Positions 1,407-31,160 of a stretch of DNA of 32,000 bases are shown piece by piece; within the stretch, counting starts at the first letter, position 1, and each line of letters opens with the position of its first letter. Source of the stretch: Candidatus Paracaedimonas acanthamoebae (GTDB taxonomy: Bacteria; Pseudomonadota; Alphaproteobacteria; Caedimonadales; Caedimonadaceae); assembly GCA_000743035.1 (NCBI GenBank), contig CP008936.1, forward strand, positions 570,001-602,000, written 5' to 3'. The translations under genes and the position numbers were made by a program. The notes under the pieces are model-generated. The model did not search any database, was not told the DNA's origin, and worked only from the letters and a program-made list of their open reading frames with translations.

Positions 1407-1685
1407 TGTATCTACATGGTATTATAACGTCAAATAGAATCTTAAGTTTTGGCAGATCGTCAAGCTTTTGAAATCTGTTGTCGGGTATTGATTGCGAATG
1501 AGATTGATGACGCCATCCAAGAACGTCTACTGATTCCTTGGCACGCTCTTTCTAATTTGTAAAATCTTACAGGTATTTCCTAAGCTAAAAAGCCTGTGCA
1601 AGAATGAGCATTAGTTTTATGCAAATTTATTGATTAATAATTTGATTTTTAACGATTAATTTCCTCTCTTTTAAGTTGAATTTTC

Positions 1686-1714
1686 TTGATTTTTGTACGC
1701 GTTTATGGTAGTCT
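1686..1714 (+). promoter_or_regulatory. putative sigma70-type promoter TTGATT-N17-TAGTCT at head of module A
   Basis: The same hexamers and the same 17-nt spacing recur at 22331-22359 (TTGATA-N17-TAGTCT). The surrounding sequence is conserved between the two copies. Confidence 0.4.
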
Positions 1715-2075
1715 TGTAAGTAGATGGTAAGAGATGAAAATGACTTCCTTGTCGGTCTTTAAAAAAGTCCACAATCCTCTTCAAAAAATTCTCTAAATCC
1801 GTCCATTAAAAATAAAACTTGAGTCTAAAAACTCATTTAAGACCAATGAACGCTCTTTTTGAGCGAATGCCCTTTCTTTGCCGGGTGAAAAGTCAGAGGG
1901 TGGGCACGGAAAAGGAGAGGGGTTGGTGGAGGATAAAGAGGATTGAAAAGTTTTGGTTTGTTATTCCCAGCCTCTCTCTTGTTATCCCTGCGACCCAGGC
2001 TACGCCAAAGGCTTCTCCGAGGTGAGAGGCGGGGGGCCAGGTAGGTCCAAAAAGGATCGGATGGTGGTGGGAGTA

Positions 2076-2119
2076 ATCTTTCGGTCTCTTGAGATCCTTG
2101 GGACAAGCCTGAGAATGAC
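2076..2119 (+). repeat. palindromic repeat unit (ATCTTTCGGTC.CTTGAGAT-hairpin-GAC), degenerate stem
   Basis: ATCTTTCGGTCTCTTGAGATCCTTGGGACAAGCCTGAGAATGAC aligns with the units at 2202, 22866 and 23141. Confidence 0.7.
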
Positions 2120-2201
2120 AATCTAAGAAACCTGTCGCTGGTCATCCCGCGAAGGCGGGGGCCGAGGAAATGCTGAAGGGAAACGATTGGTGACATGATA
2201 G

Positions 2202-2245
2202 ATCTTTCGGTCGCTTGAGATCCTTGGGACAAGCCCAAGGATGAC
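2202..2245 (+). repeat. palindromic repeat unit, intact 9-bp stem ATCCTTGGG/CCCAAGGAT with loop ACAAG
   Basis: ATCTTTCGGTCGCTTGAGATCCTTGGGACAAGCCCAAGGATGAC lies 126 nt after the previous unit. A related GTCATCC-CCCGC-GAAG-GCGGG hairpin lies between them at 2141-2163. Confidence 0.75.
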
Positions 2246-2371
2246 GAGCCTAGAAGCACTCAAGACTTATTGGCGAGGATTATTGGAAATGAAAACAAAT
2301 AAAGAAAGGATCAAGAATTGTTGGGAAATAAAAGATTAAAACTAATGAGCTTGAGGCCTACCACCCACAAG

Positions 2372-2433
2372 GTCATCCTTGGGCTTGTCCCAAGGATCTC
2401 AGGCCACCTGAAAGCGTAAATAGGTGCCATGAG
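2372..2433 (-). repeat. palindromic repeat unit, inverted orientation, long form
   Basis: GTCATCCTTGGGCTTGTCCCAAGGATCTCAGGCCACCTGAAAGCGTAAATAGGTGCCATGAG is the near-twin of 23018-23079, with compensatory stem changes. Confidence 0.75.
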
Positions 2434-2761
2434 AGAGAAAAAGAAAATAAATAAAGAAAGGAAGAAATAACAAAAATTCTCACAAGGTTTAAGCCTTATT
2501 GAGAACAACTTAAGAAGCAAGGGAGGAGGATTTAAATGAAGAGGAACTAACCCTTGATCCTTAAGAAAAAAAAGGAAGTCTTGTGTTCGGAAAGAAGAAG
2601 AGGAACTCATGATTTCATCAAGGTGAACAAAACAAAAGAAAGAGAAAAAAAATGATGTAGGGAACTAAGAAGAGCAACACGAGTTATGTGGTTTATGGTC
2701 CAGTAACTCAATAAAACAAGATAAAGAACAAATAATTTAAATAAATTAAACAGGAGGTTAC

Positions 2762-3970
2762 ATGAAAAATTATTTAAAAAGATTAGGGAACGTATGGCCA
2801 AAAATAACGGGTCGAAAGAACAATGAACAAAAGGCAAGCAGCGTTGGTAAGATGATTGCCTTAAATCAAGTGGGCCGCCCTCAATGGACGCCCCGACAGT
2901 ATGAAGCGCTCACAGCCGAGGGATATCAAAAGAATATCATCGTCTATCGGGCGGTGAGTTTGATTGCCCGCGGGGCGGCCAGTGTGCCTTGGCGACTTTA
3001 TAAACATCATGAAGAGCTCTTGAGCCATCCCCTCTTGACGCTCTTGCATCACCCAAGCCCGCGACAGGGAGGGTCAGCCTTTATTGAAGCCGTACTGTCG
3101 TATCTGCTCTTAGCCGGTAACAGTTATATTGAAATTGTGTCAGATATGAAAGGTAAGCCGGCAGAGCTCTATCCTTTAAGACCTGATCGCGTGCAGATTA
3201 TTCCTGGTGCATCAGGTGTGCCACAAGCTTTTGAATATACTGTTAACGGGGTAAGGCGGCAATTGAATGTCGACCCCACAACTGGATGGTCGCATGTGCT
3301 GCACTTAAAGTTGTTTCATCCCCTCAATGATTGGTATGGGATGAGTCCCATTGAAGCAGCAGCATGTTCCATTGATCAACACAATACTGTGGCAAGCCAT
3401 AATCTTGCCTTGCTGCAAAATGGAGGACGCCCGTCCGGTGCCCTCATGGTAGGGCGGAATGATCGGTCATTAAACCTCACGGATGAGCAGCGGCAAGAAT
3501 TGCGCGAGGATGTTCGCGCGCTTTATCAAGGCAATGATAATGCCGGGCGCATTTTGGTCTTAGAGGGCGACTTTGAATGGCAAGAGATGGGACTTTCGCC
3601 AAAAGATCTTGACTTTATTGAAGGCAAAAGTATGACGGCACGTGAGATTGCTCAGGCCTATGGGGTGCCGCCAATGCTGGTGGGGGTGAGAGGTGATGCC
3701 ACTTTTTCCAATTATCGCGAGGCGCGCTTTCATCTGTGGGAAGACACCATCTTGCCTTTATTGGATTATTTGACCGATGAGCTCAATCGATGGTTAGCGC
3801 CTCAGTTTGAGCCAGGGTTACGCTTAGCTCATGATGTCGATCGCATTCCAGCTTTGGCCCAACGACGAGAAGATGCGTGGTCTAAAATTGCCAATGCTTC
3901 TTTCCTCACCATGAATGAGAAACGTCATGCCGTGGGGTATGTTCCCATTTCAAATGGCGACCAGCTTTAA
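2762..3970 (+). CDS. phage portal protein, HK97 family (RcGTA g3-like)
   Basis: 402-aa ORF preceded by AGGAGG 6 nt upstream. Its size and sequence character fit HK97-type portals, and an HK97-type prohead protease follows directly in GTA/HK97 gene order. Confidence 0.85.
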   Translation: MKNYLKRLGNVWPKITGRKNNEQKASSVGKMIALNQVGRPQWTPRQYEALTAEGYQKNIIVYRAVSLIARGAASVPWRLYKHHEELLSHPLLTLLHHPSPRQGGSAFIEAVLSYLLLAGNSYIEIVSDMKGKPAELYPLRPDRVQIIPGASGVPQAFEYTVNGVRRQLNVDPTTGWSHVLHLKLFHPLNDWYGMSPIEAAACSIDQHNTVASHNLALLQNGGRPSGALMVGRNDRSLNLTDEQRQELREDVRALYQGNDNAGRILVLEGDFEWQEMGLSPKDLDFIEGKSMTAREIAQAYGVPPMLVGVRGDATFSNYREARFHLWEDTILPLLDYLTDELNRWLAPQFEPGLRLAHDVDRIPALAQRREDAWSKIANASFLTMNEKRHAVGYVPISNGDQL

Positions 3971-3995: not shown

Positions 3996-4535
3996 ATGAG
4001 ACTCAATAAAATTTCTTATCCGATTGAAGTGAAATTTCTTGCGGAAGAGGGCGTTTTTGAAGGCTATGCCAGTGTGTTTGAGCATCTGGATGATCATGGA
4101 GATCGTGTGTTGAAAGGCGCCTTCATCGATTCTTTGCAGCAATGGTGGCAGTCAGGTCAGGCGCCAAAAATGCTCTGGCAGCATGACCCAAGCCAACCAA
4201 TTGGCGTGTGGGAATCTTTGGAAGAAGATGGCTATGGATTGCGGGTGAAAGGTCGATTGTTGCTCGATATTCAGCGAGGTCGGGAAGCCTATACCCTCAT
4301 GAAGGCAGGCGTTTTGGATAGCTTATCTATTGGCTATCGCGTGCTTGAGGCACGGCCAAGTCATAAATCTGGTGAGCGACTTCTCAGCAAGCTTGAGCTG
4401 CATGAAATCTCGCTCGTGACCTTTCCGGCAAATAATCGGGCAAAGATTACTCAAGTGAAGAATCTGTTTAGCCAAGACGTTGATGTGATTCAGCGAATCT
4501 ATGCTCTAGTGTCGTTGTTGAAGGAGTGGAATTAG
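3996..4535 (+). CDS. HK97-family prohead (maturation) protease (RcGTA g4-like)
   Basis: 179 aa. The N-terminal motif FEGYASVFEHLDDHGDRVLKGAF is typical of Peptidase_U35/S78 prohead proteases. The gene starts 25 nt after the portal. Confidence 0.85.
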   Translation: MRLNKISYPIEVKFLAEEGVFEGYASVFEHLDDHGDRVLKGAFIDSLQQWWQSGQAPKMLWQHDPSQPIGVWESLEEDGYGLRVKGRLLLDIQRGREAYTLMKAGVLDSLSIGYRVLEARPSHKSGERLLSKLELHEISLVTFPANNRAKITQVKNLFSQDVDVIQRIYALVSLLKEWN

Positions 4536-4634
4536 GGGAGAACAGTTATGCAGATATTCATGAAAATTTTTGGGAAATCCCCTAACATTAAACAGCATTT
4601 TAAGACAATAAACTTTCTGATCATCGGATCATTT

Positions 4635-4663
4635 TTGACATGCTTTATGAACTTTAGTATAAT
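4635..4663 (+). promoter_or_regulatory. consensus sigma70 promoter TTGACA-N17-TATAAT for the toxin-antitoxin cassette
   Basis: TTGACA is at 4635-4640, followed by a 17-nt spacer and TATAAT at 4658-4663. A perfect 10-bp palindrome CTTAGCTAAG (4673-4682) lies between the -10 box and the start, partly overlapping the AAGG RBS (4682-4685). The antitoxin ATG is at 4692. Confidence 0.6.
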
Positions 4664-4691
4664 TAAACTAAACTTAGCTAAGGTTAAAAAT

Positions 4692-4931
4692 ATGAAGCTC
4701 GTCAATATTCATGAAACCAAGACACATCTTTCACATCTGCTTGAAGAAGTTGCGCAAGGAGAAGACATCATTATTTGTAAAGCTGGACACCCGATAGCGC
4801 GGCTTGTCGCCTATCAAAACTTGCCTAAAGAGAGGATCCCCGGCTATTGGCAGGGGAAAGTGGAGATAGCTGAAGATTTTGATGTGCTGCCTTCCTCTGT
4901 TCTTGCTGCCTTTAAGGGAAAAAGTGAGTGA
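4692..4931 (+). CDS. type II antitoxin, Phd/YefM (prevent-host-death) family
   Basis: MKLVNIHETKTHLSHLLEEVAQGEDIIICKAGHPIARLV is a typical Phd/YefM N-terminus, about 79 aa. I trimmed the ORF-track start (4548) to the ATG behind the promoter and RBS. The stop overlaps the toxin start (GTGA). Confidence 0.8.
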   Translation: MKLVNIHETKTHLSHLLEEVAQGEDIIICKAGHPIARLVAYQNLPKERIPGYWQGKVEIAEDFDVLPSSVLAAFKGKSE

Positions 4932-5305
4932 AAGTTCTCTTAGATACTCATATCCTTTTATGGTGGTTGGGGGACCCTCATCAGCTTCTTGAGAAAGAGA
5001 TGAGTCTTATAAAAGAACCCCGCAATACAATTTATGTCAGTAGTGTCAGTGCATGGGAAATTTCCATCAAAAAAGCCCTTGGGAAACTTAAAGCTCCTGA
5101 TAATTTGGAAGAAGCCATTCGGGCAAGCGAATTTCAGGTTTTGCCGATGACAATGGCGCATGCATGCGGGATTGAAAAGCTTCCCAATCACCATGATGAT
5201 CCATTTGACCGGATGCTGATTTTTCAGACATTATGTGAGGGACTCACGTTGCTAACGCGCGATCAGAGAATAAAGGAATATGGTGTAAGAGTCTATAAAA
5301 GTTAG
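4928..5305 (+). CDS. vapC: type II toxin, PIN-domain VapC family ribonuclease
   Basis: 125 aa with a GTG start. The N-terminal LLDTHILLW carries the conserved acidic residue, the C-terminal HHDDPFDRMLIFQ motif is typical of PIN toxins, and the gene is translationally coupled to the antitoxin. Confidence 0.8.
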   Translation: MKVLLDTHILLWWLGDPHQLLEKEMSLIKEPRNTIYVSSVSAWEISIKKALGKLKAPDNLEEAIRASEFQVLPMTMAHACGIEKLPNHHDDPFDRMLIFQTLCEGLTLLTRDQRIKEYGVRVYKS

Positions 5306-5317
5306 CGTAAGTGAGAT

Positions 5318-5454
5318 TTTAAGCTACATGAACTCTCCTCGTGGCTTTTCCAGCGAATGCGCGAGCAAAGATCTTGCAGGTAAAGAACTTGTTTAACTAA
5401 GACTACGATATTATTCAACGAATGTATGCCTTGATGTCGTTGCTGAGAGATTGA
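5318..5454 (+). pseudogene. decayed second copy of the prohead-protease 3' end
   Basis: Hand alignment to 4392-4535 gives roughly 72% identity (37 mismatches and 1 gap over about 135 columns). The fragment has a 1-nt deletion, an in-frame TAA where the intact gene has CAA, and a stop two codons earlier. A Shine-Dalgarno-like box plus ATG follows it, as after the intact gene. Confidence 0.7.
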
Positions 5455-5686
5455 ACAGGTGGAGATGAAAGAGAGAAAGAATAAAGTTTTATTTTGTTGT
5501 GTTGAGGTCTTAAAAAATAAAGTGTTTTATTCTTATTCTGTATCATTAGTTAAGAGAGAGGATTTGTGTGAAACCCTGAGGTGTTATCGTTAAGTCGACG
5601 TCTTCTCTCTTTAAGGAGATTAAGATGTTTGCTTAATGGGTTCCTCTTATCAGAGCTGCATCCTCTCTCTTGAATGCTTTTCAATA

Positions 5687-5974
5687 TTATTTATTTTTAT
5701 CTTTAGGGAAATATTTGTTAATTGTGCTCTTGACTGAGTTTCCAAGCTCCTTATACATATCTTTGCGGAGTTCTGCTGCCTCATTCTCACTAATCCCGCT
5801 TGTTTTAAGGCAACGTTCATAGGACCCGATGTTTTCTTCATTACTAATATGTGTAAAACATTCCACATGTTTTGCACGTTGTTCAACAGTGGGCTTGTTA
5901 TCACTTGCCTGGAGGGACGCACTCCCAAAGCCAATTGTTGTGACACATAATAAATAACTTAGTTTAGTCTTCAT
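5687..5974 (-). CDS. small secreted hypothetical protein (paralog 1)
   Basis: Start set at the internal ATG, which has an AGAGGA RBS. The signal peptide is MKTKLSYLLCVTTIGFGSASLQA|SD. Its signal-peptide region is paralogous to 6424..6711. Confidence 0.6.
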   Translation of the reverse strand: MKTKLSYLLCVTTIGFGSASLQASDNKPTVEQRAKHVECFTHISNEENIGSYERCLKTSGISENEAAELRKDMYKELGNSVKSTINKYFPKDKNK

Positions 5975-6002
5975 TTTTTGATTCCTCTTGTTCGTTTGAT
6001 AT

Positions 6003-6020
6003 ATGGGGACCATTCCCCAT
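6003..6020 (-). promoter_or_regulatory. inverted repeat ATGGGGA-CCAT-TCCCCAT about 37 nt upstream of the paralog 1 start
   Basis: It has 7-bp arms. A related palindrome occupies the equivalent position upstream of paralog 2. Confidence 0.45.
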
Positions 6021-6352
6021 TGCTAAAATTGTACACATATTGATTTAACAAACGGTAAAAAGGCCTATTTTAAGTTGAAGTACACCTGCTTATATGGGCA
6101 ACTACAAGAATATAGTTCATCTTGTTGAAAGACATTTTGGGTTTTAAGTGGCTGTGGTTTGATTTATAAAAAATTATTTTCAGATTTTACATCAAATTAA
6201 GTAGAAGACCTTTCTTTCTTTCCGACAACGCCTCTATTAACACCCATCTTCAAGGAATCAACAAGTCAAGCAAAGTTGATGACTTGGGAATAAGGTGATC
6301 TAGGAAAGGATATCACGGCTTATATCTTCAGGGTGATTATTGAGAGATAAAA

Positions 6353-6400
6353 AAGAAAGAATAAACATTTTCTTTAAAATTAGAGAGTTTATTCTTTCTT
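6353..6400 (-). terminator. rho-independent terminator downstream of paralog 2
   Basis: A perfect 14-bp stem AAGAAAGAATAAAC/GTTTATTCTTTCTT with a 20-nt loop is followed by a T-run on the minus strand, 23 nt after the stop. A weaker relative lies at 5477-5534. Confidence 0.6.
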
Positions 6401-6423
6401 CATAAGGTTAAATATTTTGAGAT

Positions 6424-6711
6424 TTATTTTGACGTCTTATTTGTTATAAAGTCTTTAATTGCTGCTACTTGTGCTTTCCCAGATGCTTTGACGCAATCAA
6501 GGGGATATTTCGCGAGTTGAAGCTCGTATTGTTGCTCTTGAACCTCATCACGGCTCGTATGTGATAAATCTTTTTTCTGCTGTAAATCTTGTATTTCGAG
6601 CATTGTTTCACGGGAGCATTTTGGTGAAGAGTCAGAAGCATTAGCTACTCCACTAAACAAGCCTAAAGTTGTCACACCTATTAAATAAGTTAGTTGAATT
6701 TTCTTAAGCAT
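6424..6711 (-). CDS. small secreted hypothetical protein (paralog 2)
   Basis: Start set at the internal ATG, which has an AAAGGA RBS. The signal peptide is MLKKIQLTYLIGVTTLGLFSGVANA|SD. The mature part has diverged from paralog 1. Confidence 0.6.
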   Translation of the reverse strand: MLKKIQLTYLIGVTTLGLFSGVANASDSSPKCSRETMLEIQDLQQKKDLSHTSRDEVQEQQYELQLAKYPLDCVKASGKAQVAAIKDFITNKTSK

Positions 6712-6733
6712 TATAGTTTCCTTTTGTTGAGTA

Positions 6734-6758
6734 AAAGATGGGACCAATTCCCATCTTT
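6734..6758 (-). promoter_or_regulatory. inverted repeat AAAGATGGGA-CCAAT-TCCCATCTTT about 35 nt upstream of the paralog 2 start
   Basis: It has perfect 10-bp arms. The core ATGGGA..TCCCAT is shared with 6003-6020. Confidence 0.5.
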
Positions 6759-6803
6759 AAAGGATACTTTGAACTCAATTAAAAATTAGTAAACAATTGA
6801 AAA

Positions 6804-7343
6804 TTAATATTTTTTTAAGAAATTTTTGAATTTCTGAGAAATTTCCCACAAAAGGAAAGTTAAAAGATATCCCAAAGTTCCTGAGGCAAATGAGACAATG
6901 AATACGCCTAAAATATAAGGTTTTCCTAAGGTCAAAGCCCAAGATATAAAATGTTCAAAAAAGGTCATGAGATGAGCTATTTCTAATTTAAATTCTGGCA
7001 ATGTGAGAAGTTGAGGGGCTTCGTTAAGAACAAAAAGGCCGACCTTATAAAGAAAGTAATTAATGGGGATGAAGGTAAAAGGATTATTGATCCATGTGAG
7101 TGCAACAGCAACAGGTAGGTTGGTTTTAAAATAAACGCAGAGCAAAGAGGCCCACAAGATTTGCAATGGGATGGGTAAAAAGTTCACAAAAAGCCCAATA
7201 GCAACACCACCTGCAACGTTATGTCGGTTAAGTTGACCAAGTTCTTTGAAAGAGAAGCGTTGGCAGTTTTTTGTTTTTAGTAAAGTATGCTTCCTAAACC
7301 ATTTTGCATTGGACACCCATTTTTGAAAAGATGTATGAATCAT
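6804..7343 (-). CDS. DUF2062-family membrane protein
   Basis: 179 aa. GGVAIGLFVNFLPIPLQILWASLLCVYFKTNLPVAVALTWINNPFTFIPINYFLYKVG resembles the DUF2062 core, recalled from memory. Confidence 0.6.
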   Translation of the reverse strand: MIHTSFQKWVSNAKWFRKHTLLKTKNCQRFSFKELGQLNRHNVAGGVAIGLFVNFLPIPLQILWASLLCVYFKTNLPVAVALTWINNPFTFIPINYFLYKVGLFVLNEAPQLLTLPEFKLEIAHLMTFFEHFISWALTLGKPYILGVFIVSFASGTLGYLLTFLLWEISQKFKNFLKKY

Positions 7344-10650: not shown

Positions 10651-11058
10651 TTAGAAATTACCATCGACAATTTGTTGTGCGTGATGTTTAGCTTCTTTAA
10701 ATTCTTTTTTGCTAACTAGGTTAGGAACAGGGTTAGCGGTCATCGCCGCAACTTTATGTGCGAGAGCTTCGACTTCACCAAAATCAAATTCCATCTTTCG
10801 ACAAAATGTATAAAGATCTTTACCTTTGTGGTTCTTATTCAACTTACCCACAGGACTATTTTTATCACACGCAAGACGATGAAATTCCCGGGAAACTTCT
10901 AGTCTATTTCCAAGTTGGCTTGGGGTCAGAAAACTAAAAACTTCAAGCGTCATTTCATCTGGTAAACCACTCGCAGAGGTTACGGCATATGAAGATAGCG
11001 TAAAGGGATTAAGAAGGGGTAGAAGATTGGTCATAAGCATTAAGCTTTTGATTTTCAT
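10651..11058 (-). CDS. small F-box-like protein with signal-peptide-like N-terminus
   Basis: LPDEMTLEVFSFLTPSQLGNRLEVSREFHRLACD fits the F-box consensus (LPdEil..I.s.L....L.....VsK.w..L). The N-terminus is the hydrophobic MKIKSLMLMTNLLPLLNPFTLSSYAVTSA. Confidence 0.65.
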   Translation of the reverse strand: MKIKSLMLMTNLLPLLNPFTLSSYAVTSASGLPDEMTLEVFSFLTPSQLGNRLEVSREFHRLACDKNSPVGKLNKNHKGKDLYTFCRKMEFDFGEVEALAHKVAAMTANPVPNLVSKKEFKEAKHHAQQIVDGNF

Positions 11059-15311: not shown

Positions 15312-16577
15312 TTAATCGACTTCTTCCATTAAATTATCATTTCTTTCAGTTCTTAATAGCTGGCTTATTTCAGAAGAATTGAAGATTATTCCATTAATGG
15401 AAGTTAGGTTTGGTAAGCTTGCGATGACAGATGGGATATGTGAAAAAGTATTATGCCGGTAATGAATGTCAGTTAAGGATATAAGGTTAGATAAATCGTC
15501 TGGTAAGCTTTTAAGGTTACATAAACTCACATCCAAGACTCTTAAATTCCTAAGCTTAAATATAACCGGAGGGCATTCACCTTGAAGAAAAAAATTTCCA
15601 TTTAAACCTAAAGCCGTAAGATTATTTAAAGCAGATAAACCATCTGATAAAGTTAAAAGGCGGCAACTTGATAACCTAAGAGTTTTTAAACTGGTTATTC
15701 TAGTAACAACCTCGGGTAATAACTGATTGGCGAGCGTATTAAGGCTTAAATCTAAAAATTCAAGATTCGTAAGATATGATAAAGAGAAAGGTAAATAAGA
15801 ACAATCACTAAACCTAAGGTTAAGAGATTTTAGACGTGGTAAATTAAAAAAAATATCAGGTAATGAGGTAAGAAATTGGCTGTTGCACTTAAAAACTTCA
15901 AGATTAGTGAGGCTTGAAAGTCCTTCAGGTAAAGCCATAAGAGAATTTCCCTTAAGCGATAATTTTTTCAGTGAGGTTAACATTAAAATAAACTGAGGAA
16001 ACTTTGTAAGCTTAAAATTTTTGATATTAAGTTTTGTAAGATAAGATGAATAAGAAGAATATAAAGGAAAATCAAGTTCTTTTCCTATAGAAGTTGTCTC
16101 AAAGTAAAGCTCTTGAAGAGAACAAAAGTCTAAAACAGATGTTGGGAATTTGTTAACATTTTTTTCCTGGCCTGCTTTAGAAAATTCAAGGATTTGACAA
16201 CGGATTTTTACTTTACTGCGGCAGTTTAGAGCGAAGTACATAATTTTATCTTCAGTAAGATATTTCCAAATATTTGCCCAAATTTCGGGAGGTAGAATCG
16301 AATAATATTCTAAATCTTGTTCTTCTTGGAGTAAGGCACTTTTGTTAGTACCTGGAACTTTTTCCATTAAACTTTGTTCTGTTGTCCTATGGGGGACTTG
16401 GTGATGAAAAAAAGCTTTCGTTTTTATTAATAAATTATAAGCTTCTTCCAACTTTTTTCGTAAATTAAAGCAGTAATATCTTTTATTATCTTCTTGCTTT
16501 TCTCTAAAGCTATCCGAAGCCTCAAGTTGGTTAAAACCAAGACAGAGAAATAAGAAAAGAGTAAATTTTGACAGCAT
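15312..16577 (-). CDS. leucine-rich-repeat protein with N-terminal signal peptide and F-box-like motif
   Basis: The signal peptide is MLSKFTLFLFLCLGFNQLEA|SD. ILPPEIWANIWKYLTEDKIMYFALNCRS is F-box-like. At least 8 LRRs follow (LTSLKKLSLKGNSLMALPEGLSSLTNLEVF..., LxxLxLxxNxL). The gene is visibly AT-richer than its neighbours. Confidence 0.7.
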   Translation of the reverse strand: MLSKFTLFLFLCLGFNQLEASDSFREKQEDNKRYYCFNLRKKLEEAYNLLIKTKAFFHHQVPHRTTEQSLMEKVPGTNKSALLQEEQDLEYYSILPPEIWANIWKYLTEDKIMYFALNCRSKVKIRCQILEFSKAGQEKNVNKFPTSVLDFCSLQELYFETTSIGKELDFPLYSSYSSYLTKLNIKNFKLTKFPQFILMLTSLKKLSLKGNSLMALPEGLSSLTNLEVFKCNSQFLTSLPDIFFNLPRLKSLNLRFSDCSYLPFSLSYLTNLEFLDLSLNTLANQLLPEVVTRITSLKTLRLSSCRLLTLSDGLSALNNLTALGLNGNFFLQGECPPVIFKLRNLRVLDVSLCNLKSLPDDLSNLISLTDIHYRHNTFSHIPSVIASLPNLTSINGIIFNSSEISQLLRTERNDNLMEEVD

Positions 16578-16660: not shown

Positions 16661-17968
16661 TTAGGATTGCCACACTTTATAGGGACGTACCATATTTGCT
16701 TCTAGCATTAATGCTGTCAGGGCCCATACAAGGGCATCGACGCGGTCGGGCGAGGTCGTCATGCCGGGTAGGAATTTACACATCTGATCTTCAAGAAGTT
16801 TGAGGCCTTGGCGCGCATGGTGAACTTTCCCTTGTTCATAAAAAGCAGCGATAGGTTCTGCTCGTATATATTTTCCCCTGCTTGCATGAACCCCTTGATA
16901 GCTGATGTGAGGATCAAGCGACCTTAGAAGGCTTTCAACTAGATCGCCTCCTTGATTGACTTCAGCCACAATACGATCAGCTTTCCAGCGATGGTAAGCT
17001 TCACATGCGATCTTGCCCCAGGTCGTTGCAGGATAACGACCACTTAAATCTTCAAGAACATAAGCATGATGATCTTTTCCTAAATCAACAACAATGATAC
17101 CAGTTTCATCGCTTTCGTCATGATGGGTGACAGCTGGATCGATTCCAATGATGACTCGTTTAAGAGGAGAAGGCTCAGCTTCGCGATATTGATCAAGCAA
17201 AGCAGGCGGCCACAATGCACTTTCTCGTGCCTCAATAATTTCGCCTAAAAGCTCTTGGGCTCCTAAGCGTGTTCCTGCAAAACTCTTTTGCATTGTTTCA
17301 ATAAAAAGAGAGGAAAGATTCGCTTGGTTCTCAAAAGTTGTCCCACGTGTGAGCACGATTTCTTGCCCAGCTTGCGCGACAAGTTGTTGAAGCAAAGGCA
17401 ATGGGCGCGGTGTTGTGGTGATTACCATTCTAGGGTGAGAGCCAAGTCGGAGCGCAAAATGGATCTGTTGCCATACTTTTTCCATTTCACGAAATTTAGC
17501 AAACTCATCAATCCAGGCATGATCAAATTGAGGCCCTCGGAGTTGATCATAATTTTCAGCACTATACGCTGTCGCAATCGCGCCATTTTTCCATGTTAAA
17601 CGCCGCTTTGAAGGTTCATAGTGAGGACGGTCATCAGGGGGGTGAATTGCTAAAAGTCCACTTTCACCTTCAACCATAATGTCGCGGACATCTTCTTGAG
17701 TATCGCCGATAAGAGCAATGCGACGCGCTTGGTTGGTTTTAACCCAATGTCGGATGGTTTCAGCGCCCGTACGGGTTTTCCCAAAACCGCGGCCAGCGAG
17801 AACGAGCCAAATGCGCCAGTCACCTTCAGGAATTTTTTGACTCGGTCGAGCGTGGAAATGCCAATCATAATTTTCTAAGTTTTCAGGGGCGAGGGTGAGC
17901 GTTCCTTTCATTAAAAAAGGCTGACTTTGAGAGGGAACAGAGTGAGGATAAGAAGAGTATTTTTCCAT
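16661..17968 (-). CDS. phage/GTA terminase large subunit (RcGTA g2-like)
   Basis: 435 aa with the Walker-A-like WLVLAGRGFGKTRTGAE near the N-terminus and an RNaseH-like C-terminal nuclease half (IGIDPAVTHHDESDETGIIVV). Its size matches GTA-type TerL. Confidence 0.8.
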   Translation of the reverse strand: MEKYSSYPHSVPSQSQPFLMKGTLTLAPENLENYDWHFHARPSQKIPEGDWRIWLVLAGRGFGKTRTGAETIRHWVKTNQARRIALIGDTQEDVRDIMVEGESGLLAIHPPDDRPHYEPSKRRLTWKNGAIATAYSAENYDQLRGPQFDHAWIDEFAKFREMEKVWQQIHFALRLGSHPRMVITTTPRPLPLLQQLVAQAGQEIVLTRGTTFENQANLSSLFIETMQKSFAGTRLGAQELLGEIIEARESALWPPALLDQYREAEPSPLKRVIIGIDPAVTHHDESDETGIIVVDLGKDHHAYVLEDLSGRYPATTWGKIACEAYHRWKADRIVAEVNQGGDLVESLLRSLDPHISYQGVHASRGKYIRAEPIAAFYEQGKVHHARQGLKLLEDQMCKFLPGMTTSPDRVDALVWALTALMLEANMVRPYKVWQS

Positions 17969-20722: not shown

Positions 20723-21571
20723 ATGATGCAGAAACCTTTACTCTATTCTTTATTGCTGCATCTTTTTTTATTCATATTGTTTATCTTTGGGCTTCCAAAT
20801 TGGCGTAAAAGCAACCCGGATTTGCTTTTACCTATCCCTATTGATGTGGTTGAAATTGGATCTAAGACGCAGGCGCCTAAGCCAACACTTCACCCCAAAA
20901 AAGAAGAAACTAAGAAAGACGAGCCTAAAAAAGAACCTCCTAAAAAGGAAGAGCCAAAGCATCAACCAAAACCTGAAAATAAGCCAACGCCGGAGCCAGA
21001 AAAGCCTAAGCCAGAGCCAAAAGCTGAACCCATTGCGCCGGCACCAAAGGCAAAGCCTAAGCCACCCACACCCCCTAAAAAGGCTCAAGAGAAGAAGGCA
21101 CCTGAAAAGAAGCCAGAAAAGAAAAAGGTTAATGCGTTTGATTCAGTGCTTAAGAATCTTGAAGAAATTGAGAAAACAGTGCCTGATGCCATTAAGGATG
21201 CTAAAAGCGACGATAATGCTCCTGACCAACAAGTGGGAGAAATTGGAGATACGTTAACGGTTAGTGAGATAGATGCTCTTAGAAAGCACTTTGAAAATTG
21301 TTGGATTGTACCAGCAGGTACGAAAGGAGCGCATGAAATGTCAGTTATCCCCATTAAAATTTATTTCAATATTGATGGATCGGTGGTGGATGCTAAGCCT
21401 GTAGAAACGGTCAAAATGAGCGACCCAGCTTATCGTGCTATTGCTGAAAGTGCTGTGCGATCTGCTAAAGGTCCTCAGTGTAGTCCTGTCCCTGCAAAAT
21501 TATTGTCTCCAGAGAAGTATGAGCAATGGAAAGTTTTGAGCTTCAACTTTCATCCAAAAGATTTGATGTAA
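20723..21571 (+). CDS. tolA: Tol-Pal system protein TolA-like (N-terminal anchor, K/P/E-rich linker, C-terminal TolA/TonB-type domain)
   Basis: The position after tolR, one N-terminal TM, a long KPEPK-type low-complexity linker and a globular C-terminus all fit TolA. Confidence 0.8.
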   Translation: MMQKPLLYSLLLHLFLFILFIFGLPNWRKSNPDLLLPIPIDVVEIGSKTQAPKPTLHPKKEETKKDEPKKEPPKKEEPKHQPKPENKPTPEPEKPKPEPKAEPIAPAPKAKPKPPTPPKKAQEKKAPEKKPEKKKVNAFDSVLKNLEEIEKTVPDAIKDAKSDDNAPDQQVGEIGDTLTVSEIDALRKHFENCWIVPAGTKGAHEMSVIPIKIYFNIDGSVVDAKPVETVKMSDPAYRAIAESAVRSAKGPQCSPVPAKLLSPEKYEQWKVLSFNFHPKDLM

Positions 21572-21782: not shown

Positions 21783-22151
21783 ATGATTATTAAAATTGAA
21801 GGCAAAATTTCTGCGTCTGAATTTCATAAAGTTGTTGATATATTATCATCTTATTTTCAAAAGCATGGCGTTGAAGAATTTATAGCAGTCGATATTGATT
21901 TGAAACCATTCCATAAAGAAATACAGTTGCCAATTTCTCTTTCTGGTGAAACAGGGAAAGAGATAAAGTCGTTAGAAATAAGAAGGTCAAAATCAGGCGA
22001 GCTAAAGCTGACAGAAACAACGGTAAATAGTTCTTGGATGACAGTCCCCTTTGGAAGCGTTTCTCCAGGGGAGCTTATGATGCGCCTATGGCCTTTGTAT
22101 CTTGTTGGGTTTGGCTTGTTAATTTTATATTTAATGTGGTTTAAAGCTTAA
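21783..22151 (+). CDS. orphan hypothetical protein with C-terminal TM helix, inserted between tolA and tolB
   Basis: 122-aa ORF with the tail segment LWPLYLVGFGLLILYLMWF. It is AT-rich, the only GGAGG is about 16 nt upstream (poor spacing), and no family was recognised. Confidence 0.4.
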   Translation: MIIKIEGKISASEFHKVVDILSSYFQKHGVEEFIAVDIDLKPFHKEIQLPISLSGETGKEIKSLEIRRSKSGELKLTETTVNSSWMTVPFGSVSPGELMMRLWPLYLVGFGLLILYLMWFKA

Positions 22152-22330
22152 TAGTAAATTGGCTAACTTTTTTACTAAGTCTCATATTTTTAGCCTTTAT
22201 CAAACAAGGAGCTTTTTTGTAATGAAAAGATTTTTTAGGAAGTTATTAGTATAAGGGGGGCTTCCCTCACTTTCTTTCATAATATTTTTTTGAATAACTC
22301 AAAAATATTTGAAATTTGCGCAAAATTCTC

Positions 22331-22359
22331 TTGATATTTGTAACCTATTGTGGTAGTCT
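22331..22359 (+). promoter_or_regulatory. putative sigma70-type promoter TTGATA-N17-TAGTCT at head of module B
   Basis: Its architecture is identical to 1686-1714. Confidence 0.4.
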
Positions 22360-22852
22360 GATAATAGATGGTCAGAAATGATTTTCTTCCCTTATGAAAC
22401 CTTAAAACAGTCTCATAATTCTTTCAAAAATCCTTTCCGATCGTCTTAATAAAAACAATAATAAGGCAGGGAGTTTAAAACCTAAATTATTAGAGAAAAA
22501 AAGCCTTTGAGCGCTCTTTTTGAGCGAATGCCCTCTCTTTGCCTTTTTTCAAAAGCCAATTTCCGTGGTGAAAAAGAGAAGAAAAAGGAGTGATAAGAAA
22601 GGATTAAGAAGGATTTTCCTTCCAACTGTGGATCCCTGCCTGCGCGAGGATGACAAAGGGAGGGACGTGATGATGACAAACTGGGGAAGGTCTCTAATCA
22701 TGCGTGAGAAGTATGGTGGAAAAGGTCACTATGAAAGGTCCTCACTATGTTTGCGAGGTACTTGGTGAAAGATGAGCCAGTGTGTGAGAGGCAACTTTCC
22801 TTCTGTTATCCTCGCAAAAGCGGGGCTCCAGGAGTGCAGGAAAACAATGAGA

Positions 22853-22909
22853 GGCGATAGGAGAGATCTTTAAGTCGCTTGAGATTCTCTGAACAGGCCC
22901 GAGAATGAC
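22853..22909 (+). repeat. palindromic repeat unit (57-nt form)
   Basis: GGCGATAGGAGAGATCTTTAAGTCGCTTGAGATTCTCTGAACAGGCCCGAGAATGAC is 54/57 identical to 23128-23184. Confidence 0.75.
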
Positions 22910-23017
22910 ACAGGGGGGGATGAAAGGGCTCGTTGGCAAGGATACGGGGGCGGGTGCGAAAGCACTGTCAGGAAAGGGTGTTGGAAAGGAAGTCATAGAA
23001 TAATCATCCTCTCCATC

Positions 23018-23079
23018 GTCATCCCCGGCCTTGTGCCGGGGATCTCAGGCAACCTGAAGGCGTGAATAGATGCCATGAG
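23018..23079 (-). repeat. palindromic repeat unit, inverted orientation, long form
   Basis: GTCATCCCCGGCCTTGTGCCGGGGATCTCAGGCAACCTGAAGGCGTGAATAGATGCCATGAG has a 9-bp stem ATCCCCGGC/GCCGGGGAT with loop CTTGT. Confidence 0.75.
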
Positions 23080-23127
23080 GTCTTCATCATGCGTAATAGG
23101 GATGGTATGAAAGAGAAAAAGCCGCAT

Positions 23128-23184
23128 GGCGATAGGAGAGATCTTTAAGTCGCTTGAGATTCTCGGAACAAGCCCGAGAAGGAC
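23128..23184 (+). repeat. palindromic repeat unit (57-nt form)
   Basis: GGCGATAGGAGAGATCTTTAAGTCGCTTGAGATTCTCGGAACAAGCCCGAGAAGGAC has the stem TTCTCGG/CCGAGAA. Confidence 0.75.
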
Positions 23185-23205
23185 AACATTTAAGGTCTAA
23201 AGTCC

Positions 23206-23237
23206 GTCATCCTTGGGCCAGGGCCTAAGATAATGAG
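23206..23237 (-). repeat. degenerate inverted palindromic unit
   Basis: GTCATCCTTGGGCCAGGGCCTAAGATAATGAG shares the GTCATCC head and the ...ATGAG tail with the long inverted form. Confidence 0.45.
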
Positions 23238-23587
23238 AATGGAAAGATTTGGAGCTTGCGTATGAGAGCTAAGTGAAAATAAAAAAACAAAGAAAGGGAA
23301 AAAATGTTGAGAAATAAAAGGTTAACACCGATGCGATGCAAAAGTATCATCTATATAGGGAGATCTTATAGGGACAAGGATCCAGAGAATGAGGAGATGC
23401 TGAAAGACATTAAGAAGGCTTTTTTCTTAAGACGGGGAAGGAGGTTGCTAGTTTAATGATGAAAGTACTTCTTTCCATTTTTATCCAAAGGTTTTATAGT
23501 GCGCTTTTGAACAAGATAAGTCTTTAAAATTTATATAGAAACGCTTTTGCATAATTAAGGTGTGGTTGCTGAAAAAAGGTCATAATC

Positions 23588-24910
23588 ATGAGGAAAATGA
23601 GGAATTTAGTTACTTTAATTTTAGGTGGTTTTCTTGTCGTAAAGTCCCTTCACGCAGAGCTTGTGATTGATGTGACCTCGGGCCGAGTCGAGCCTATGCC
23701 CATTGCCGTGACAGATTTTTATGGAGCAACACCTCAACTTGCTGCACTTGGGGCTCAAATTACGAAGATTATTAGTGACGACCTTGAAAGTTGTGGGCTC
23801 TTTAGGCCTTTGGATAAAATGTCGTTTATCCAAAGTCCTGCCCAACTTCGAGACCATATCAGGCATGCAGATTGGCGCCTTATTAATACGCAAACACTTG
23901 TGCGTGGTGAAATCAGACAACTCTCCGATGGACGTTTAAGGGTTGAATTCCGTCTCTTTGATGTGATCTCAGAAAAACAAATGGAAGGTCTAGCTTTTCC
24001 TTTTGATCCCAGACTCCAGCGTCGCATTGCTCATAAGATTGCGGATGCCATTTACAAGAGAGTGACGGGAGATGAAGGATATTTTGATACACGCATCGTT
24101 TATGTATCGCAAACAGGGCCTTTAACAAATGCACGCAGACGATTGGCAATTATGGATCAAGATGGGGCAAACGCGAGGCTTCTTAGCACAGGGGATACAA
24201 GCGTTTTGACACCGCGTTTTTCACCTGATGGACAGGAAATTGCGTATTTAGAGTTTGCGCGTCAACGAAATATGGCACCTCATGTTTATCGTATGCAGCT
24301 TTCAACACTTCAGCGTCAGCTTGTGGGAAATTTTAAAGGAATGACATTTGCACCTCATTATTCGCCTGATGGAAAAAATGTGGTGATGAGTTTTTCTGCG
24401 GGAGGACGAACCTCTCTTTATAAAATGAATATTCTTACGCGAACAGTTCAACGTTTAACAGATGGCCCTCTGATCGACACCTCACCATGTTATTCGCCTG
24501 ATGGTACGAAAATTGTTTTTAACTCCGATCGTGGTGGAAAACCTCAACTTTATATCATGTCTGCGAATGGCGGAGATGCTCAACGAATTAGTTTTGGTCA
24601 TGGGCGCTATATGACACCTGTATGGTCACCGCGAGGAGATTTAATTGCTTTTACGAAACAGCATGCCGGTAATTTTTACATCGGAGTGATACGTCCTGAT
24701 GGAACAGGAGAGCGCTTAATTGCACAGGGTTATGTGGTTGAAGATCCGTGCTGGTCCCCTAATGGGCGTGTGATCATGTTTACACGGATGGAACGTTCTG
24801 GAAAATCAAAGATTTATACAGTGGATATTACAGGGTATAATGAAAGGATATTGCCTACACCTGCAGGAATAGATGCTCGAGGGCCTTCTTGGTCTCCCCC
24901 CTTGAATTAA
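23588..24910 (+). CDS. tolB: Tol-Pal system beta-propeller protein TolB
   Basis: 440 aa with a signal peptide and repeated SPDG/PD40 motifs (FSPDGQEIAY, YSPDGKNVVM, YSPDGTKIVF, WSPRGDLIAF, WSPNGRVIMF). Confidence 0.95.
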   Translation: MRKMRNLVTLILGGFLVVKSLHAELVIDVTSGRVEPMPIAVTDFYGATPQLAALGAQITKIISDDLESCGLFRPLDKMSFIQSPAQLRDHIRHADWRLINTQTLVRGEIRQLSDGRLRVEFRLFDVISEKQMEGLAFPFDPRLQRRIAHKIADAIYKRVTGDEGYFDTRIVYVSQTGPLTNARRRLAIMDQDGANARLLSTGDTSVLTPRFSPDGQEIAYLEFARQRNMAPHVYRMQLSTLQRQLVGNFKGMTFAPHYSPDGKNVVMSFSAGGRTSLYKMNILTRTVQRLTDGPLIDTSPCYSPDGTKIVFNSDRGGKPQLYIMSANGGDAQRISFGHGRYMTPVWSPRGDLIAFTKQHAGNFYIGVIRPDGTGERLIAQGYVVEDPCWSPNGRVIMFTRMERSGKSKIYTVDITGYNERILPTPAGIDARGPSWSPPLN

Positions 24911-25023: not shown

Positions 25024-25491
25024 ATGAAAAAAGTATTAGCCGCTCTCGGCACAACACTTCTTCTCGCAGCTTGTGATACTTGCTGTGAAGACAAAGCTGC
25101 TACTGGTGGTTTTGATATCAATAGTGAAGCAACACCAGGTTCAGCTGCTGAATTCCATCAAGTTATTGGCGATACAGTACACTTTGGTTTTGATAAGCAT
25201 AACTTAACGACTGAAGGACAAACTGTACTTCATAAGCAAGCTGATTGGCTTAAGAAGTGGCCACAAACAAACGTTGTTGTAGAAGGTCATTGTGACATTC
25301 GCGGAACAACTGAATACAACATGGCTCTCGGTGAACGTCGTGCTCATGAAGTCAAGAAGTTCTTGGTTGGTCAAGGCATTGATACAAAGCGCGTAGAGAC
25401 TGTTAGCTACGGTAAAGAACACCCAGTTGCACAAGGTACAACTGAAGCAGATCACGCTAAGAACCGTCGCGGTGTGACAGTTCTTCGCTAG
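25024..25491 (+). CDS. pal: peptidoglycan-associated lipoprotein Pal (OmpA-like)
   Basis: Lipobox LLLAAC and an OmpA C-terminal domain (VVVEGHCDIRGTTEYNMALGERRA...KNRRGV). It follows tolB. Confidence 0.9.
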   Translation: MKKVLAALGTTLLLAACDTCCEDKAATGGFDINSEATPGSAAEFHQVIGDTVHFGFDKHNLTTEGQTVLHKQADWLKKWPQTNVVVEGHCDIRGTTEYNMALGERRAHEVKKFLVGQGIDTKRVETVSYGKEHPVAQGTTEADHAKNRRGVTVLR

Positions 25492-29629: not shown

Positions 29630-31160
29630 GTGAAGCCGCCGTTCTATATTACAACCCCGATTTATTATGTGAATGATGTACCTCATATTGGTCATGCGTA
29701 TACGACAATTGCATCAGATATGATGGCCCGCTTTGCAAGAATGGAAGGCCGAGAGGTCTTATTCTTAACAGGAACGGATGAACATGGCCAAAAAATCCAA
29801 AAAGCAGCGCAAGCAGGAGGGACAGATCCTAAAGCTTTTGTGGATCAGGTTTCTGAGAGGTTTAGACAATTAACACCGTTATTTCATTTATCCAATGACC
29901 AATTCATCCGAACGACAGAAGAACGCCATATACAGTCAGCCCAGGCTTTATGGGCCAAAATGAAAGAGCGAGGATTCATTTATAAAGGAGGATATGCAGG
30001 ATGGTATGCTGTCCGGGATGAAGCTTTTTATGCGGAGTCTGAACTTATTAATGGCAAAGCGCCAACAGGAGCAGATGTCGAGTGGGTAGAAGAGCCCAGC
30101 TATTTCTTTAAACTTTCTTCTTTTCAAGAGCCTTTGCTTGCATTCTATCGGGATAATCCTCATTTTATTGGGCCAGAAACGCGACGGAATGAAGTTATTC
30201 GATTTGTGGAAGGAGGTCTCAATGATCTTTCCATTTCACGTTCTTCCTTTAAGTGGGGAGTCCCCGTGCCGGATGATCCAGACCATGTCATGTATGTGTG
30301 GGTTGATGCGCTTGCAAACTATATTACAGCTCTTGGGTATCCAGATGAAAATGCGGCTGATTTTAAAAAATTTTGGCCAGAAGCCCTCCATATTATTGGA
30401 AAAGATATTCTTCGTTTTCATGCCATTTATTGGCCTGCCTTTTTGATGGCCGCTGGTTTAACACCTCCAAAGCGCCTTTATGCACATGGATGGTGGACCA
30501 ATGAAGGACAAAAAAATCTCAAAATCTGTGGGCAATACAATCGATCCTGTTGAGCTTGTGGAAACTTATGGGGTGGACCAAGTACGTTATTTCCTTTTGC
30601 GTGAGGTGCCTTTTGGCCAGGATGGAGATTTCTCCCGCACCGCTCTTGAGCAGCGTATTAATTCCGATCTTGCAAATGATTTTGGAAATTTAGCGCAACG
30701 CGTTCTTTCATTTGTTTATAAGAATGCTGACGCAAAAGTACCAACACCATCTTCTTTTACCGAGCAAGATGAGATGCTTTTAAAGGCTGCACAAGAGCTG
30801 TTGCCACGCTTGTGTGAGAATTTTGAAAAACAAGCACTTCACCGCATGATTGAAGCGATTTGGGAGCTTGTGGGAGCGGCTAACCGATATGTAGATGCTG
30901 AGCAGCCTTGGGCTTTAAAGAAATCAGACACTGTGCGGATGGCGACAGTTCTTTATGTTCTCTTAGAGGTTTTGCGGCATTTGGCATTTTATGTGGCTCC
31001 CATCATACCGCAGACATCTGAAAGATTGCTGGCATTACTCGGTATTTCAGAGGCAAGCATTTCGTTTAAAGATTTAATTGAAAAGAAGCTTCAAAGTGGT
31101 GTGCAATTGCCGCAACCAGAAGGATTATTCCCCCGGATTGAAAAGGAGCGCAAAGAATGA
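29630..31160 (+). pseudogene. metG: methionine--tRNA ligase, interrupted as sequenced by a 1-nt frameshift in an A7 run
   Basis: The N-terminal ORF 29630..30553 (GTG start, HIGH motif VPHIGHAYT) and the C-terminal ORF 30480..31160 ([12 protein letters not shown]..., anticodon-binding domain) are both MetRS. Removing one A from 30510-30516 fuses them into about 509 aa. Confidence 0.85.

Follow-up and report, generated by a model that had tools for sequence, protein, structure and literature searches.

The stretch analysed here, referred to as the window, comprises 32,000 nt of Candidatus Paracaedimonas acanthamoebae (contig CP008936.1, positions 570,001-602,000), and coordinates are window positions unless a related locus is named. 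It contains two gene-poor intervals, copy A (1683-2760) and copy B (22328-23587), each built as a module in which a promoter-like site is followed by a conserved domain of ca. 165-185 nt, the head, and then by a spacer. Copy A lies between a divergently oriented HU gene and a portal-protease pair of the gene transfer agent (GTA) type, while copy B sits in the tol-pal cluster, in the order ybgC, tolQ, tolR, a 282-aa open reading frame (ORF) matching TolA, a 122-aa orphan ORF, the module, tolB and pal. Related loci compared with the window carry L-numbers (such as L003, L009 and L043), and WA denotes window copy A. Judged from its sequence, the organism is Caedibacter-like, within the Holosporales, its TolB sharing 67% identity with the Caedimonas varicaedens protein and 89-93% with proteins from further assemblies; exact look-ups of window TolB and of P0122 returned no match. 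The preferred reading, to which a probability of about 0.55 is attached, is that A and B are paralogous copies of a lineage-specific, duplicated, cis-acting promoter-leader cassette found in Caedibacter/Paracaedibacter-like Holosporales. The features of copy A and its cargo are as follows.

1642..1685, plus strand: A/T-rich upstream region with a TTGAT box ca. 45 nt before the -35 (alignment of 20 upstream regions)
1686..1714, plus strand: promoter-like site, read directly; -35 TTGATT 1686-1691, 17-nt spacer, TG 1706-1707, -10 TAGTCT 1709-1714
1716..1882, plus strand: head RNA domain, subtype g3 (covariance model 42.9 bits, E 3e-7); P1 from 1721, P2 1749-1756 / 1767-1774, P4 1851-1855 / 1861-1865, pyrimidine tail 1866-1882
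1883..1950, plus strand: P5 region and GGA-rich purine run, common to L016 and L030
2063..2255, plus strand: two palindromic units in '+' orientation, 2063-2120 and 2189-2255 (repeat families D1-D3; in up to 11 other modules)
2283..2347, plus strand: purine block (families D5, D6 and D11), with a partial second copy at 2435-2462
2372..2433, plus strand: inverted palindromic unit (inverted repeat I1, family D4); 2372-2408 is 95% complementary to 2209-2245
2503..2761, plus strand: conserved 3' leader of the GTA subtype (blastn ca. 80% to L009), ending in the ribosome-binding motif AAACAGGAGG at 2748-2757
2762..3970, plus strand: GTA-type portal, cargo of copy A (Pfam Phage_portal, E 3e-88)
3996-4535, plus strand: prohead protease (Peptidase_S78, E 6e-33)

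The corresponding features of copy B and of the tol genes next to it are these.

20723..21571, plus strand: TolA-like gene after tolQ and tolR (TIGR02794 tolA_full, E 8e-12, under the curated cut-off)
21783..22151, plus strand: 122-aa ORF between tolA and copy B, without a family match, with a hydrophobic C-terminus
22254..22277, plus strand: terminator-like hairpin with a T-rich tail, just before the copy B promoter
22331..22359, plus strand: promoter-like site, from direct reading and family conservation; -35 TTGATA 22331-22336, 17-nt spacer, TG 22351-22352, -10 TAGTCT 22354-22359
22360..22543, plus strand: head RNA domain, subtype g1 (covariance model 90.2 bits, E 2e-17); P1 22365-22381 / 22431-22447, P2 22392-22400 / 22410-22418, P4 22512-22516 / 22522-22526, tail 22527-22543
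22544..22582, plus strand: P5 region (CUUUUUUCA....UGAAAAAG), its pairing judged by eye and uncounted
22853..23185, plus strand: three palindromic units, 22853-22910 (+), 23018-23079 (inverted) and 23128-23185 (+) (families D2-D4; in 4-10 other modules)
23268..23333, plus strand: purine block (repeat families and occurrence in other modules)
23451..23587, plus strand: tolB-proximal region, absent from other modules, with a promoter-like TTTCCA-N17-TATAGT at 23472-23500
23588..24910, plus strand: tolB (Pfam TolB_N, PD40)
25024-25491, plus strand: pal (Pfam OmpA)

The similarity of the two copies exceeds chance by far. The sites TTGATT-N17-TAGTCT (1686-1714) and TTGATA-N17-TAGTCT (22331-22359), pointed out in a preliminary description of this DNA, are present at those positions, and both have a TG one base ahead of the second hexamer (an extended -10). 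In pairwise alignment the heads are collinear and alignable over ca. 250 nt, and a near-identical block, also described before, was found as 36 nt with 94% identity (1847-1882 vs 22508-22543). Shared palindromic units and a shared purine block were seen both by pairwise alignment and by a repeat finder; the units measure ca. 58-62 nt and occur in both orientations (2063-2120, 2189-2246 and 2372-2433 in copy A; 22853-22910, 23018-23079 and 23128-23185 in copy B), and the purine block is ca. 80% identical by the repeat finder (2287-2347 vs 23271-23333). A covariance model made from two copies of another genome matched the window exactly twice, at 22360-22543 and 1716-1882. All of this agrees with the earlier view of A and B as homologous, promoter-led regions whose conservation is at the nucleic-acid level, while the statement that they are the two largest non-coding gaps holds only approximately, as a third ORF-poor stretch at 5306-6803 carries only unsupported ORFs. 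That stretch, ca. 1.5 kb long, has ORFs of 98-108 aa on the minus strand with no Pfam match and a purine-rich repeat (5462-5495 / 6342-6375), and the head covariance model finds no match in it.

Further heads were collected with an exact 21-mer from the conserved block, scanned against metagenome-assembled genomes (MAGs) and metagenomes. It matched nine loci in two Caedibacter MAGs, 27 metagenome loci and, by chance, one Bacteroidota MAG; after collapsing, 20 distinct heads were left, both window copies counted. Caedibacter sp. 38-128 has five of them and Caedibacter sp. 37-49 four, the remainder being metagenomic, so that a genome holds at least 4-5 heads. Searched against Rfam 15 at gathering thresholds, the window gave no match, E-value scans of both gaps gave only sub-threshold noise (the best being CsrC, whose 16.3 bits compare with a gathering score of 61), and 14 related loci gave tRNA and rRNA genes only. 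A role as a CsrA sponge, considered on the strength of that 16-bit CsrC match, was dropped, the score being far under the gathering score. The Caedibacter/Paracaedibacter genome literature searched does not mention the cassette. The family is thus real and non-chance, and absent from Rfam and from the literature searched; with 20 distinct copies, strong covariation and no Rfam match in either gap, the head fits the structured leader or non-coding RNA (ncRNA) family that had been hypothesised before.

In the head a hairpin, P2, is enclosed by the long-range helix P1; an A-rich linker, hairpin P3, hairpin P4 (CGCUC-UUUUU-GAGCG), a pyrimidine tail and hairpin P5 follow in that order. Independent minimum free energy (MFE) folds of 11 copies gave the same P1, P2 and P4, as do the fold of copy A and that of the copy B head (-39 kcal/mol, z -2.75). 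P5, judged by eye, is represented after the tail of other copies by hairpins of the type GCCUG-GUGAAA-AGGC, and the P5 region of copy B matches in position the extended U-run/A-run hairpins of other g1 copies, for example UUUUUUCAGGGG...CCCCUGAAAAAA. RNAalifold on a plain MAFFT alignment recovered only the invariant P4, because the other hairpins were out of register, and a covariance model was therefore built from two near-identical copies with a hand-derived structure. In the alignment of 20 copies guided by this model, 89.6% of cells pair, against 33-42% with slid partners; 18 of 42 pairs (76 cells) are changed on both sides, and none of 500 shuffles reaches the observed covariation score. 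Compensatory changes affect nine of the 11 pairs of P2, for instance UUAUGAAGA/UCUUCAUAA, UUACUGA/UCAGUAA and UUAUUGG/CCAAUAA. A mini-ORF, leaderless and beginning with the AUG of UAGAUGG, was rejected, its length and frame being unconserved and L007 and L010 reading through.

Promoter geometry of the sigma-70 type is retained in all 20 copies as CTTGA, a 17-nt spacer and TGnTAnnnT, with variation in the letters of the -10 (TAGCCT, TAATCT, TATGGT), and in L013 the local promoter sequence is rearranged with all distances maintained. Conservation extends into ca. 105 nt of A/T-rich upstream sequence, TTGAT box included, and fades gradually at a left border ca. 105 nt before the -35; the 20 aligned upstream regions give the consensus ..AAAAAT-TAT..TTGAT..TTTTG..GAATTTTCTTGA. 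A hairpin with a T-run, resembling a terminator, precedes several copies as it does copy B. Helix P1 begins ca. 7 nt past the -10, at most a few nucleotides from the expected start site.

Heads are as conserved between species as coding DNA, while spacers evolve fast. In four orthologous pairs (portal, capsid, acs and hppA) the heads are ca. 85% identical, on a par with the adjacent genes (81-86% nt, 88-96% aa), whereas the spacers are 8-89% alignable; the association of head and gene is retained between species in all four. For copy A the head is 84.5% identical to its L009 orthologue, and the alignable parts are the head and the last ca. 260 nt before portal, the middle sharing only reshuffled units. 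The L009 blastn match begins at 2503 and continues into portal, with indels in the leader that are not multiples of three, and part of this 2503-2761 leader also occurs in L016/L030, L005/L034 and L017.

Between head and cargo, every palindromic-unit match in the ca. 285 kb of window and related loci has a head 77-1200 nt upstream of it, and the purine block recurs 450-900 nt after the head in L018, L004, L016/L030, L026 and L029. The unit stems vary as ATCCTTGGG, ATCCTCGGG, ATCCCCGGC and ATCCTAGGC, each with a matching 3' arm; a hairpin-mismatch test on the units was discarded, there being too few mismatches and a faulty centre finder. Units also translate, as (V/I)GEIFRSLEILGT.PRMT, within ORFs of L003, L004, L019 and L012, and the unit peptide occurs twice in the hypothetical protein IM40_01765 of Ca. 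Paracaedimonas acanthamoebae. Spacers are rich in purine and poor in C (61-64% and 15.5-15.8%, vs 52% and 18.6% for the window), and 19 of 21 modules lack any plus-strand terminator-like site, the exceptions being L012, where the sole match is the P4 hairpin itself, and L028, which has a clear terminator near its 3' end.

A hairpin-rich spacer of this kind raises the question of whether the head is a processive antitermination leader, either of the Nus-factor boxA type or resembling the put/EAR RNAs, that allows polymerase to cross it. In gamma-proteobacteria the boxA consensus is GYTCTTTAANA (PMC5725501), and P4 GCTCTTTTTGA matches it at eight of ten defined positions; the element is near the promoter, and the spacers are long, untranslated and C-poor. 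Against this, the rRNA leader of this lineage (L029, ca. 6905-7010) has a different boxA-like sequence, GGATCTTTGACAAGT, and no head. Identity of the head motif with a boxA of that leader was rejected, the sequences differing (L029 GATCTTTGACA shares 7 of 11 positions with the head). The boxA element is bound as single-stranded RNA, and the head motif is held in a hairpin, as the 5' arm and loop of P4, in every fold. Copies with short spacers (92-180 nt) have, moreover, no evident need of antitermination, and this explanation is considered improbable. The rRNA operon leader of L029 (6880-7170), in which GGATCTTTGACAAGT lies, has the promoter TTGACA-N17-TATAAC, and AGATGGTC, the 8-mer with which head P1 begins, recurs in its promoter spacer, probably by coincidence.

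Modules end in a ribosome-binding motif specific to them, AUAAACAGGRRG-N7-9-AUG, which opens a cargo ORF. Modules totalling ca. 21 kb contain the core AAACAGGRRG 12 times, and the 32-kb window has it at two places, of which the portal start is one. The motif stands directly before portal (WA, L009, L017), capsid (L034, L030), a 307-aa ORF, maeB and a 624-aa secreted-looking protein, and in L025, L037, L032 and L021 motif and cargo ORF follow the head by 50-270 nt. The motif abuts portal in copy A, which identifies portal, and with it the protease, as the cargo of that copy. In g1 modules it directly precedes a small ORF of 91-104 aa starting MM(K/E), found at the following positions.

L003 3590-3895, head-oriented strand: small ORF
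L004 6431-6745, head-oriented strand: small ORF
L043 407-682: small ORF
L019 4252-4578, head-oriented strand: small ORF, frameshifted

The encoded protein has the pattern MM(K/E)..Y.Q... W.Q.FNRWWDL.FG.E.R, and codon differences in W.Q.FNRWWDL.FG.E.R among L003, L004 and L019 are nearly all synonymous, which marks this ORF, on sequence grounds, as a real gene. It extends into a palindromic unit, and a search of 5.8 billion proteins returned its own cluster and one unit-derived match, with no other homologue. The earlier characterisation of the modules as ORF-less is accurate for the window copies in that neither holds a family-matching ORF, but not for related modules, which carry this gene. 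Clustering six-frame translations of the modules was uninformative, because homologous DNA yields similar peptides.

Genes following the heads include GTA portal and capsid, tolB, acs, an H+-pyrophosphatase, maeB-mgtE, a beta-lactamase-like gene and orphan secreted proteins, and the g3 subtype stands only before GTA head-region loci (portal, capsid and the L016 locus). L016 (2241-4534) and L030 (6936-9623, both on the head-oriented strand) agree in the head, which is identical, in the 159-aa gene upstream and in a near-identical ribosome-binding region; their cargo differs, being a 307-aa orphan and a 178-aa ORF in L016 and capsid with a 206-aa ORF in L030, the latter matching the ORF after capsid in L005. 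Of the 19 loci whose downstream sequence can be read, 17 have a next gene co-oriented with the head.

If A and B are cassettes of this type, the promoter would fire and the head would form the 5' part of the cargo mRNA, where it may act in cis on stability or regulated expression. Its 5'-terminal helix would protect the RNA against 5'-end-dependent decay, and the C-poor, terminator-free spacer would allow polymerase to travel across a long untranslated stretch. Paralogous heads would place dispersed genes under common control, with g3 standing before portal and before capsid, the two GTA head-gene loci. Candidate roles of the head are thus 5'-end protection, regulated stability or the binding of a common factor.

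Several points weigh against this interpretation. A simple consensus promoter scan does not call the sites of copies A and B, since TAGTCT matches the consensus at only three of six positions, so that promoter activity is predicted from the conservation of geometry, and the start site and read-through are likewise predictions. The alignment behind the pair counts was fitted to the model structure, and the invariance of P4 is an ascertainment artefact, as the collecting 21-mer lies within it. Neither wobble pairs (G-U 31 cells vs A-C 33) nor fold z-scores (-2.75 for plus vs -2.71 for minus) are informative as to which strand folds, and the plus-strand call therefore rests on the promoter, purine loading and co-orientation with genes. 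The cargo genes are functionally disparate, and no expression platform was detected, pairing of the tail with the ribosome-binding site being inconsistent; the CCCUCUCUUU tail was rejected as an anti-Shine-Dalgarno element, since MFE folds pair it with that site in only 1 of 12 constructs. L004/L021 and L008/L027 have no co-oriented gene, a terminator precedes the next large gene in L028 (strong, 130 nt before the neighbour) and in L043, and conserved proximal promoter-like sites are present at tolB and at acs (TTGACC-N17-TATGCT). These terminators and promoter-like sites make the module a separate unit for several of its neighbours, of which several large ones probably have their own promoters. 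The modules are best seen as units with their own cargo rather than as drivers of any gene that happens to follow.

The same loci can be read in favour of a stand-alone, trans-acting ncRNA family consisting of the head or the whole ca. 1-kb module, for which gene proximity would be incidental and read-through the most to be expected. Small RNA families typically comprise several paralogues under near-identical promoters, and two loci without a co-oriented gene, a terminator at the module 3' end ahead of the next gene in L028 and L043, and the sites at tolB and acs would all suit it. Such an RNA should nonetheless end, and no module has a plus-strand terminator after its head, the only near-head match being P4 of L012. 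A closing stem in copy B (AAGGCAGGG / CCCUCUCUUUGCC) with a U-run, examined as a terminator, was rejected because it is not conserved in L003, L013 and L019. The module-specific ribosome-binding motif and cargo ORF shortly after the heads of L025, L037, L032 and L021 weigh against it as well, and the trans-acting alternative is regarded as unlikely.

A promoter-leader cassette that has outlived its cargo would describe copy B. The tol genes of Caedimonas varicaedens and GCA_041443025 run tolQ-tolR-tolA-tolB-pal, tolB lying next to tolA or overlapping it with no gene called in between, which indicates that copy B and the 122-aa ORF are a lineage-specific insertion. That ORF (21783-22151) holds the window's only other AAACAGGGAA motif, at 21949, besides the one at the portal start. 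Copy B itself has neither the module ribosome-binding motif nor the small ORF, from which it follows that its original cargo has decayed; this was the small ORF with the FNRWWDL-like motif, still present in the closest relative, L043. Part or all of 23451-23587 is 73-84% alignable to the region upstream of tolB in L038, L039, L042 and L043, the remaining spacer being unalignable. Relatives whose TolB is 90-93% identical have in common with the window, upstream of tolB, only units and the proximal ca. 140 nt. TTTYCA-N17-TATAGT ca. 90 nt before tolB is kept in three relatives, and in L043 a terminator stands between module and tolB, just upstream of this site; tolB most likely uses its own proximal promoter, as far as sequence can tell. 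The assemblies of the closest relatives (L038, L039, L040, L042 and L043) break at their 5' ends 220-960 nt before tolB, within the repeat-rich module, and short-read assemblies will consequently under-report cassettes.

These observations also bear on what the preliminary description made of the neighbouring genes. It took tolB to lack tolA, but ORF 20723-21571 matches TolA (TIGR02794, E 8e-12) and tolQ, tolR and tolA are all present. It also treated portal without terminase as a loss, whereas the window does encode the large terminase (16661-17968, minus strand), and a detached terminase has been reported for Holosporaceae GTA clusters (PMC9254644). Decay of terminase or tolA within the gaps was rejected, as the gap ORFs match no NCBIfam model and both genes are elsewhere in the window. 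The notion that the module re-drives genes which it has cut off is doubtful for tolB, given the conserved proximal site and the L043 terminator.

The split tol-pal operon, contiguous in the two relatives named, is among the reasons for considering a non-autonomous mobile or recombinogenic element whose copies spread within the genome, with a promoter aboard by chance. Copy number (at least 4-5 per genome) would suit such an element, as would units that occur in both orientations and in arrangements differing between orthologous modules, and the pair L016 and L030, which share head and upstream gene and differ in cargo. Its defining features are missing, however: the repeat finder joins the ends of neither module by an inverted or direct repeat, no transposase lies beside any copy, where the neighbours are ordinary genes, and the portal, capsid, acs and hppA associations are stable between species. 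The promoter that had been described as outward is at the gene-distal end of the module and not next to the gene. No match was found in plasmid, phage or viral collections, and an origin from any of these was rejected. Mobility, as proposed earlier, is for these reasons a rather poor candidate, somewhat behind the trans-acting RNA.

Least credible of all, and very improbable, is that the gaps are decayed genes or pseudogene debris without present function. The loss from copy B of the small ORF kept by L043, the frameshift in L019 and the fast evolution of spacers might be taken to suggest this; against it stand heads conserved like coding DNA, with compensatory changes, gap ORFs in the window that match no family, and promoter geometry intact in every copy.

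A cis-acting promoter-leader cassette, the reading maintained here, resembles known structured 5' leaders (riboswitch-like, protein-binding or ompA-type stabilisers) in having a promoter-near, multi-helix, covarying fold between promoter and ribosome-binding site, and a 5'-terminal helix that begins a few nucleotides from the predicted start. It is unlike them in that it has no Rfam match, unrelated cargo and no detected terminator or anti-ribosome-binding-site platform, its leader can exceed 1 kb, and the promoter is copied along with the RNA. It does not behave as a riboswitch, the cargo being incoherent (portal, capsid, maeB, the small ORF and secreted orphans) and tail pairing with the ribosome-binding site appearing in 1 of 12 folds. 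The Brt RNAs of Bartonella are multi-copy structured RNAs of ca. 200 nt, which stand before small regulator genes of one family and end in a terminator. Like the heads they are several paralogous structured RNAs per intracellular alphaproteobacterial genome, each with its own promoter and before a gene; unlike them, heads precede diverse cargo with no terminator after the head. With rRNA-operon and lambda nut leaders the head shares its promoter-proximal position, a GCUCUUU core and a following long untranslated sequence with long-range inverted repeats, but its motif is off consensus at two positions and within a hairpin, and the lineage's rRNA leader is different.

The units resemble known repeats in form. 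As in repetitive extragenic palindromes and bacterial interspersed mosaic elements (REP/BIME), they are imperfect palindromes of ca. 45-60 nt, clustered, in both orientations and with compensatory stem variation, and as in Rickettsia palindromic elements (RPE) they are readable in frame inside ORFs. In the ca. 285 kb sampled around heads they are present only downstream of heads, in contrast to genome-wide dispersal, and no REP-associated tyrosine transposase (RAYT) was seen there. Miniature inverted-repeat transposable elements (MITEs) and insertion sequences, for example of the Correia type, have terminal inverted repeats and target-site duplications, but no inverted or direct repeat joins the ends of either module, and the left border is gradual; as for presence and absence, copy B is missing from the tolA-tolB junction of two relatives, while four head-gene associations are kept between species. 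An integron or an array like that of CRISPR does not fit either, the units being irregularly spaced and in both orientations, and the neighbours such genes as HU, tolA, Lon and Cox11.

Some further genes of the window deserve mention. A PhdYefM antitoxin / PIN toxin pair (4548-5305, plus strand) directly follows the prohead protease at the position expected for capsid, as it also does in L009, and capsid is found at another locus, preceded by a g3 head of its own (L005/L034, L030). The lone large terminase (Terminase_6N/6C; 16661-17968, minus strand) is 13 kb from portal, flanked by a leucine-rich repeat (LRR) gene and apaG, with no head upstream of it. An F-box-like protein (10651-11058, minus strand) and the LRR protein (15312-16577, minus strand) have eukaryote-like domains typical of amoeba symbionts. 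Methionyl-tRNA synthetase is encoded in two overlapping ORFs (29630-30553 and 30480-31160, plus strand; 307 and 226 aa), whereas in L038 and L039 it is a single protein of 508-509 aa; candidate explanations of the split are a frameshift, a pseudogene and a sequencing error.

A bolder version of the cassette model, which must be called doubtful, would make the module a self-contained duplicable unit with insulating terminator, promoter, leader, private units and a private ribosome-binding motif. Its RNA would be a new ligand- or protein-binding class, a dispersed regulon would link both GTA loci to metabolic and effector-like genes, and the units would have a function in the RNA, for instance as processing sites made by inverted pairs, rather than being selfish insertions.

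At the strength of the preferred reading, the finding adds a well-supported structured RNA family, with 20 copies, strong covariation and no Rfam entry, from poorly studied obligate intracellular bacteria. It would represent a mode of regulatory evolution in which an entire unit of promoter, leader and ribosome-binding site is copied before unrelated genes. One subtype before both GTA head-gene loci would provide a handle on the control of an endosymbiont GTA after its ancestral cluster broke up. RPE/REP-like palindromes exclusive to one transcript family would be unusual if this holds genome-wide, and could show how such elements choose their targets.

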